From: a virus | Lineage: Duplodnaviria > Heunggongvirae > Uroviricota > Caudoviricetes | IMG/VR virus record: IMGVR_UViG_2695420744_000004 | Location: 1-13,324 of that record | Length of the DNA: 13,324 nucleotides | Strand: one strand, 5' to 3' | Shown here: positions 7,370-7,885 of the stretch, in pieces | Layout of the letters: each line of letters opens with the position of its first letter | How positions within the stretch are numbered: the stretch's first letter is position 1 | Notes under the pieces: generated by a model | Told to the model about the DNA's origin: nothing | The model's database searches: none | The model's input: the letters and a program-made list of their open reading frames with translations, nothing else | Position numbers and translations under genes: made by a program

Positions 7370-7885
7370 ATGGCGTTAACACACCGCGAACTCTGTCAGA
7401 TTGCGTACAGGTTCCTTAAGCGCAACGGGTTCAAGGTTTGCTTTCATGACCGCTTTGTTGCTGTAACCAGTACTGGAGAACAACCAGATGCTATGGGATT
7501 CAGAAATTCAGCATCATGCCTGATAGAGGCGAAGTGTTCTCGTGCTGACTTGTTGGCAGATAGAAAAAAGCGTTTCCGTAAAAATCCCTCTCTTGGCATG
7601 GGCGACTGGAGATTCTTTATTAGTGAGCCGGGAATTATTTCAATTGAGGATTTACCACCTGGCTGGGGATTACTTCACGTTGTTAACGGAAGAGTACGGA
7701 AAGTACATGGGTGGCCCAAGGGTAATTGCTGTTGGGGTGATCCTGACGATAAGCCATTTACTGGAAATAAGCAGGTTGAATGCGATTACATGTTGTCTGC
7801 ATTAAGGCGCATGGAGTTGAGGGGACACCTTAATGAAATATATGACGGTGTAATCGTTAATAAGCAAGAAGGAAGCGCGGCATGA
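7370..7885 (+). CDS. PD-(D/E)xK nuclease-fold protein (predicted)
   Basis: Motif …[20 protein letters not shown]… (P-D, then 13 residues, then E-x-K). AGGAGA Shine-Dalgarno within the shared 18-nt junction; ATGA-coupled to the downstream gene. Confidence 0.5.

Follow-up and report, generated by a model that had tools for sequence, protein, structure and literature searches.

A prophage-borne candidate PD-(D/E)xK nuclease from a family that is sister to the MmcB-like proteins

The gene and its prophage context

The stretch of DNA analyzed here (13,324 nucleotides; hereafter the window) comes from a lambdoid Escherichia coli prophage related to Qin and Rac, of which it represents the immunity, replication, and nin region. 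Its closest matches among complete genomes show 99% identity across 87% of the window. According to the annotation of these genomes and Pfam scans, the gene order starts with relBE, a cI/cro-like pair, YdaT, an O-like gene with a DnaT domain, and a lambda-P-like gene. These are followed by genes for DUF1627, DUF977, DUF4406, Ea22-like, and zinc-ribbon proteins, by a block of 3 genes that includes the nuclease candidate, and then by hokD, DUF968 (HNH-like), RusA, and Q. With the O/P-like replication genes on one side of the nuclease gene and Q on the other, the initial annotation was fair in speaking of a nin-like block. The separate rusA gene it mentioned was also recovered (PF05866, E 1.4e-13). 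The positions of these features are listed in Table 1.

The nuclease candidate is encoded by an ORF of 516 bp with an ATG start, as originally described. The gene is coupled to its neighbours on both sides, again as described: the TGA of the upstream gene ends 1 base before the nuclease ATG, with a strong Shine-Dalgarno sequence in the last codons of that gene, and the ATG of the downstream gene overlaps the nuclease TGA (ATGA). The 2 flanking genes had also been called paralogous, which holds in part. Their products have an N-terminal module of about 50 residues in common (34% identity, pairwise E 6e-5) and match the same PHROGs (660, 5117, 60, and 3323), but they are not full paralogues. The carboxyl terminus of the downstream protein matches the end of PHROG 660 and PHROG 924. 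Both genes encode mosaic Ea22-type module proteins and are not specific partners of the nuclease. A consensus scan revealed no convincing promoter or terminator around the 3 genes.

Table 1. Positions of the features discussed, in window coordinates
Feature	Position	Strand	Description
Nuclease candidate gene	7370..7885	+	ATG start, 171 aa, MmcB-like sister family
Upstream coupled gene	6943..7368	+	141 aa, mosaic Ea22-type module protein, PHROG 660, hypothetical
Downstream coupled gene	7882..8226	+	114 aa, hypothetical; N-terminal module like that of the upstream protein
Shine-Dalgarno sequence of nuclease gene	7357-7365	+	AAAGGAGAA, in last codons (IKGE) of upstream gene
Region of I(R/G)IKGE ending	7345-7368		end of upstream gene
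Catalytic core	7478..7534	+	E37-x-P39-D40 (start of strand beta2) to E53-x-K55 (end of strand beta3)
Codon of D40	7487-7489		gat
Codon of E53	7526-7528		gag
Codon of K55	7532-7534		aag
Helix after ExK	7538..7579	+	S57-R58-x-D60-(F/L)-x-x-D64-x-K66-K67-x-x-R70; counterpart in MmcB-like proteins (SIEDFRVDRK)
Conserved strand and following motif	7598..7675	+	G76-M-G78-D79-W-R81-F-F strand and L95-P96-x-G-W99-G100-L101-L102 motif; correspond to CDRLFF and FPEDCGL of MmcB
Toxin-antitoxin pair	1336-1871	-	RelE/ParE-RelB
Ea22-like gene	6052-6513
Zinc-ribbon protein gene	6491-6847	+	118 aa, PHROG 1621 (function not annotated)
Small ORF	8223-8306	+	27 codons
Direct duplication, copy 1	8329-9815		1.49 kb, 94% identity to copy 2
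Direct duplication, copy 2	10064-11544
DUF968 gene, copy 1	9121-9834		237 aa, shortened
DUF968 gene, copy 2	10850-11905		351 aa, DUF968 and HNH-like region
rusA	11906..12271		PF05866

Several other features of the window were recorded. By the annotation of a 99%-identical genome, a toxin-antitoxin pair adjoins the repressor-like gene in the immunity region, and a YdaT-family gene lies downstream of the cro-like gene. The ORF directly 5' of the 3-gene block overlaps the end of the Ea22-like gene, and its product has a weak, sub-threshold match to a TFIIB-type zinc ribbon (PF08271, E 1.6e-4). On the other side of the block, the ATG of a small ORF overlaps the stop codon of the downstream coupled gene; its predicted product is a small hydrophobic peptide that probably spans the membrane, and it is without annotation in the nearest genomes. 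Further downstream, a direct duplication extends over the hokD-like region and a small ORF and includes the part of the DUF968 gene that encodes the N terminus; the first DUF968 copy is shortened relative to the second. The nearest genome, with its 87% coverage of the window and a single hokD and DUF968 annotated, appears to carry the duplicated block in single copy.

In the 2 nearest E. coli genomes, RefSeq/PGAP calls the nuclease gene a 179-nt “frameshifted” pseudogene (L001, 8870-9048; L015, 7739-7917; both equivalent to 7370-7548 of the window). We rejected this reading, as the DNA of these genomes is identical to the window over the whole intact ORF. Truncated reference proteins are the probable source of the call, which looks like an artefact of annotation. 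In other genomes, the gene is annotated as a normal hypothetical protein.

Active site, predicted fold, and family placement

The product had initially been proposed to be a nuclease of the PD-(D/E)xK type on account of a short motif, which reads as claimed: Q38-P39-D40 is followed by E53-A54-K55, with E53 placed 13 residues past D40. Such a string is not beyond chance, as D-x(8-30)-[DE]xK was found in 61% of 10,000 shuffles of the nuclease protein and PD-x(8-30)-[DE]xK in 6.6% of the same shuffles, and its significance therefore rests on conservation and structure. D40, E53, and K55 are invariant in family alignments A1 and A3, the latter of which extends to 33% identity. In alignment A2, D40 is invariant, while E37, E53, and K55 are conserved at at least 90%. 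In total, 12 positions are invariant in A3 (E37, D40, E53, K55, D60, D64, K67, R70, G78, R81, E137, and R146), and H5, L8, P39, G43, G76, P96, W99, G100, L101, and R147 are nearly so. Judging by the aligned sequences, D40, E53, and K55 thus rank among the most conserved positions of the family. The helix that follows ExK, with its 4 invariant residues (D60, D64, K67, and R70), could also be aligned to the MmcB profile and to the structure 3dnx, which are discussed below.

An AlphaFold2 model, based on an alignment of 38 sequences, was confident (pLDDT 89.6, pTM 0.84). It contains a helix (residues 5-18), 3 strands (23-26, 41-45, and 48-54), a second helix (58-65), and a further strand (80-85). 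Together with the Foldseek searches, it predicts a restriction-endonuclease-like fold with the alpha-beta-beta-beta-alpha-beta core of the PD-(D/E)xK superfamily (Pfam clan CL0236). D40 directly precedes strand 41-45, and E53 and K55 are found where strand 48-54 ends; these are the canonical positions. The model is similar to 3dnx over the whole domain. Among viral models, Foldseek retrieved phage proteins annotated as “MmcB-like DNA repair protein”. Matches to the PDB were weak (best E 0.015), with nearly all of them being nucleases with this fold; the structural neighbours include CRISPR ancillary nucleases and restriction enzymes. A single-sequence phmmer search of the PDB gave only noise. 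With the fold predicted to be present and the motif conserved, the interpretation as a PD-(D/E)xK nuclease is supported.

No Pfam or NCBIfam model matches the nuclease protein, in agreement with the earlier remark that it does not resemble NinG or RusA. Likewise, neither the nuclease nor its 2 neighbours matched a defence family of PADLOC-DB v2 at E-values up to 1. Strong matches were found to PHROGs 9263 and 631, both of “unknown function”, along with a weak match to a “DNA repair protein” PHROG. A word-indexed search yielded homologues in 328 clusters at 90% identity, all of them hypothetical and without Pfam domains. An exhaustive search yielded 2,623 representatives at 50% identity, 1,400 of which scored below E 1e-10. 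A second wide search with the family profile added further “hypothetical” proteins without Pfam domains and no annotated bridge sequences. Some homologues are larger than the nuclease of the window. In proteins of 240-252 aa from Salmonella and E. coli prophages (P0009, P0094, P0096, and P0105), an Ead/Ea22-like domain (PF13935) is fused to the N-terminal side of the nuclease domain, a protein of 428 aa (P0142) carries an unrelated N-terminal extension of ~260 residues, and others (P0206, P0245, P0259, P0260, and P0267) have long carboxyl-terminal extensions.

A placement was obtained by comparison with the MmcB-like proteins. 3dnx (SPO1766 of Ruegeria pomeroyi) is a structure of DUF1052 (PF06319, COG5321), now called MmcB-like, a family that was linked to archaeal Holliday-junction resolvases by profile analysis in 2005 (PMC1189080). 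MmcB of Caulobacter crescentus has been reported to be an SOS-induced endonuclease that protects against mitomycin C and cisplatin, and that possibly initiates cross-link repair (PMC9578287). With the profile of the nuclease family, 3dnx was matched with an E-value of 2.6e-4 and Hjc with one of about 0.2. When the family alignment A3 was compared by hhalign with a profile of genuine MmcB proteins (A9), all of which carry PF06319, the 2 aligned over 86 columns with a probability of 91.4% (E 9.2e-7) and with all motifs paired. D40 was paired with D52 of MmcB and E53xK55 with E66xK68, as were SRxD(F/L)xxD with SIEDFRVD, GDWRFF with CDRLFF, and LPxGWGL with FPEDCGL. The residues of the catalytic core also align with the D and ExK of 3dnx.

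The nuclease protein itself had no match to PF06319 even at E 10, the best of its relatives reached 21.0 bits and others 12-18 bits, below the gathering threshold of 22 bits, and the domain is absent from all listed homologues. The lack of PF06319 membership argues for a separate family. Relatives also fall just below the Pfam threshold for UPF0102. The Hjc model PF01870 (gathering threshold 21.1 bits) did not match the nuclease protein, and gave weak matches in 23 of 38 relatives, one of which reached 22.3 bits over just 28 residues. We conclude that the gene belongs to a distinct, large, and unnamed family (PHROGs 631 and 9263) carried by phages and mobile elements. Its sister group is formed by the bacterial MmcB-like DNA-repair nucleases (DUF1052, PF06319), and it sits in a branch related to archaeal Holliday-junction resolvases. 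The initial annotation had left the gene unassigned, and it is indeed hypothetical in every source consulted; no study of it emerged from literature searches that covered Upf89.0, exo-xis nucleases, and the PHROG identifiers. Very probably, its product is a PD-(D/E)xK nuclease with an intact active site, related to the MmcB-like proteins.

Distribution and genomic neighbourhood

The gene was found at ~96% identity in more than 130 phage records, mostly of Stx1- and Stx2-converting phages, and is present in most of the sequenced Stx-converting phages of the collection. There, it lies in the pL operon (exo-xis region), downstream of gam-bet-exo and after an Ea22-like gene. In the phage-plasmid P7, where it is named Upf89.0, it is part of an accessory operon and again follows an Ea22-like gene. 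Among 5,426 complete E. coli genomes, 931 carried the gene, with up to 6 copies per genome, and 250 of the 1,299 E. coli matches were on plasmid records. Distant relatives extend further, as tblastn detected the family in 643 phage records overall, including some virulent phages. Several homologues bear wrong labels that have evidently been propagated, such as “minor tail protein”, “adenylosuccinate synthase”, and “structural protein (spo1766 structure)” (NC_050152, P7; KT898134, phiARM81mr; OL615013, ChubbyThor; KX581099, Strym).

Since an Ea22-type protein always precedes the gene in E. coli phages, it was considered as a specific partner. This candidate was rejected, as only the last 6 residues are common to these proteins, and they amount to the ribosome-binding site. 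The upstream proteins of the window (141 aa), of Stx2-1717 (315 aa), and of P7 (228 aa) are otherwise unrelated and all end in I(R/G)IKGE (L007 and L006, both at 4976-4999, in addition to the window), as does that of a related prophage. The codons AAA GGA GAA of the IKGE ending form the Shine-Dalgarno sequence of the nuclease gene. As the upstream proteins are alike only in these codons, the gene travels as a cassette that brings along its own translation signal, and it has no specific protein partner. The I(R/G)IKGE codons mark the left mosaic junction of this mobile cassette.

Outside E. coli, the gene was often found among replication genes. It lies immediately or one gene upstream of the DNA primase gene in an Ackermannviridae-type Klebsiella phage and in a 157-kb Vibrio phage, and between helicase and primase in the Vibrio siphophage KF5. 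In the nin region of lambdoid phages, it directly follows NinB in Aeromonas and lies 2 genes downstream of NinB in Vibrio D217. To survey the neighbours more widely, 2 genes on each side were compared to Pfam at 47 non-redundant IMG/VR viral loci. No Pfam family recurred in more than 2 of the 47 loci, so that no fixed partner, such as a toxin-antitoxin, inhibitor, methylase, or sensor gene, emerged. Most neighbours had no Pfam match, and those with a match were mostly replication, recombination, repair, or DNA-methylation proteins, including NinB, SSB, DnaB, RusA, YbcO, DUF1064, Prim-Pol, RdgC, RecA, Ref nuclease, an SNF2 helicase, exonucleases, and methylases. In one Thioalbus-related phage, 2 large flanking genes gave only a weak, sub-threshold Mu-F match. 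Overall, the surrounding genes speak for a role in DNA replication, recombination, or repair and not for one in defence.

A homologue with 51% identity was found in a different setting, on a 105-kb Logan contig (SRR14574964). It is located amid many small ORFs in a block with genes for a C5 DNA methylase, the small subunit of ribonucleotide reductase, and SSB, followed by conjugation (T4SS) genes of the DotD/TraI/T2SSE type. This locus may be the establishment region of a conjugative element rather than part of a phage.

Proposed function and comparison with known systems

Taken together, the explanation that we favour, and consider on balance probable, is a single-domain, metal-dependent sister of MmcB that processes DNA during phage replication or recombination. 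As to its field of action alone, we see an even chance that the nuclease acts on DNA structures in replication, recombination, or repair. The protein is small and has no sensor or specificity domain, and its gene is transcribed with the early rightward operon, in which it follows the replication genes and precedes Q. The enzyme would be an endonuclease that depends on divalent metal ions. By analogy with the superfamily, D40 and E53, possibly together with E37, would bind Mg2+, while K55 would activate the attacking water or position it. The DNA would be held by conserved basic residues (K66, K67, R70, R81, R146, and R147). Its most likely task would be the cutting of branched, stalled, or damaged DNA that arises from phage replication and recombination, and we infer that a DNA structure or lesion, not a sequence, would be recognized, as for MmcB and Hjc.

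Of the rival explanations, a coincidental motif or a catalytically dead, DNA-binding relic has next to no probability in our view. Most shuffles reproduce the bare motif, and truncated copies of the gene are common in cryptic prophages, but neither accounts for D40, E53, and K55 being invariant in A1 and A3, alongside 9 further positions invariant in A3 down to 33% identity, nor for the invariance of D40 and the at least 90% conservation of E53 and K55 in A2. The 3 residues moreover occupy canonical positions in the model and align with the catalytic residues of the MmcB-like proteins. A selfish, free-standing endonuclease of the homing type, which spreads by cutting genomes that lack its gene, could explain why nearly identical copies of the gene (~96%) occupy different positions in unrelated backbones (nin, Stx exo-xis, and P7) and carry their own ribosome-binding site across mosaic junctions. 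Such mosaicism is common to all Ea22-region genes of lambdoid phages, though, and the family is ancient and diverse, as its 2,623 clusters at 50% identity attest, holds a stable place beside primase in whole phage lineages, and has no added DNA-recognition domain. Known free-standing phage homing enzymes are mostly of the GIY-YIG or HNH type. We consider this origin very improbable.

Two other readings deserve somewhat more weight, while still being unlikely. The protein could be a true Holliday-junction resolvase, dimeric and specific for four-way junctions like Hjc, that works alongside or instead of RusA or NinG. Such a role is plausible, yet MmcB is by far the closer relative, and the window already has RusA. 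It could also be a nuclease of genetic conflicts that serves the establishment of phages and plasmids, either by countering defence or by degrading the DNA of the host or of competitors, or that protects the lysogen against other phages. The mosaic accessory regions in which the gene resides in E. coli, beside Ea22-type genes, are in line with such a role, as are the apparent conjugative-element locus with its methylase, SSB, small ORFs, and T4SS genes, the recurrence of DNA methyltransferases among the neighbours, and the CRISPR ancillary nucleases and restriction enzymes among the structural neighbours. Against it stand the lack of a PADLOC match or a partner gene, and the conservation of the gene beside primase in lytic phages. 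We regard a conflict role as improbable, to about the same degree as a resolvase.

A further and more novel proposal can be made. Temperate phages such as the Stx phages are induced by DNA damage, including damage by mitomycin C, and the prophage template can itself be damaged by this agent. The nuclease might be a phage-borne counterpart of the damage-repair nuclease MmcB that lets replication proceed on a template damaged by the inducer, a proposal to which we assign a low probability. If true, an early nuclease, often encoded beside primase or helicase genes, could incise cross-linked or blocked forks. This would provide a dedicated repair step for damaged phage templates, and prophage copies might raise the tolerance of the host to cross-linking agents.

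The placement as a sister of MmcB gives a testable function to a widespread early phage gene that is hypothetical in every database, and a new Pfam or NCBIfam model would be warranted. What is gained is an annotation, together with a hypothesis open to testing, for a gene that is very frequent in E. coli prophages, Stx phages, phage-plasmids of the P1/P7 type, and Ackermannviridae. No new kind of enzyme or system is revealed, and the assignment is useful rather than surprising.

Among known systems, the MmcB-like proteins are the closest, with clear differences. They are chromosomal and mostly found in Alphaproteobacteria, whereas the nuclease family occurs in phages, prophages, and plasmids of Gammaproteobacteria and others. 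MmcB-like genes are under SOS control in Caulobacter, and those studied here have actR and an L,D-transpeptidase gene as neighbours. The nuclease family has its own invariant E37, as well as W99, and a carboxyl-terminal helix (with E137 and R146) that was left out of the hhalign alignment with MmcB. More distantly, archaeal Hjc (PF01870) and the AHJR-like/YraN proteins (UPF0102) have the same minimal PD-(D/E)xK core and the same spacing between D and ExK, and this group gave weak but recurrent sequence matches to the nuclease family. RusA (PF05866) and NinG have genomic neighbourhood and early-operon expression in common with the nuclease gene and, plausibly, the general task of processing recombination or replication intermediates, but they are not homologous to it, and the fold of RusA is different. 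Finally, the RLE domain of R2 non-LTR retrotransposons was among the top Foldseek matches in the PDB, and a modelling paper on the R2Bm endonuclease mentions 3dnx/SPO1766 (PMC4838377). With E-values of 0.015 or worse, this likeness is weak and goes no further than the shared AHJR-like core; the RLE is one domain of a large reverse transcriptase.
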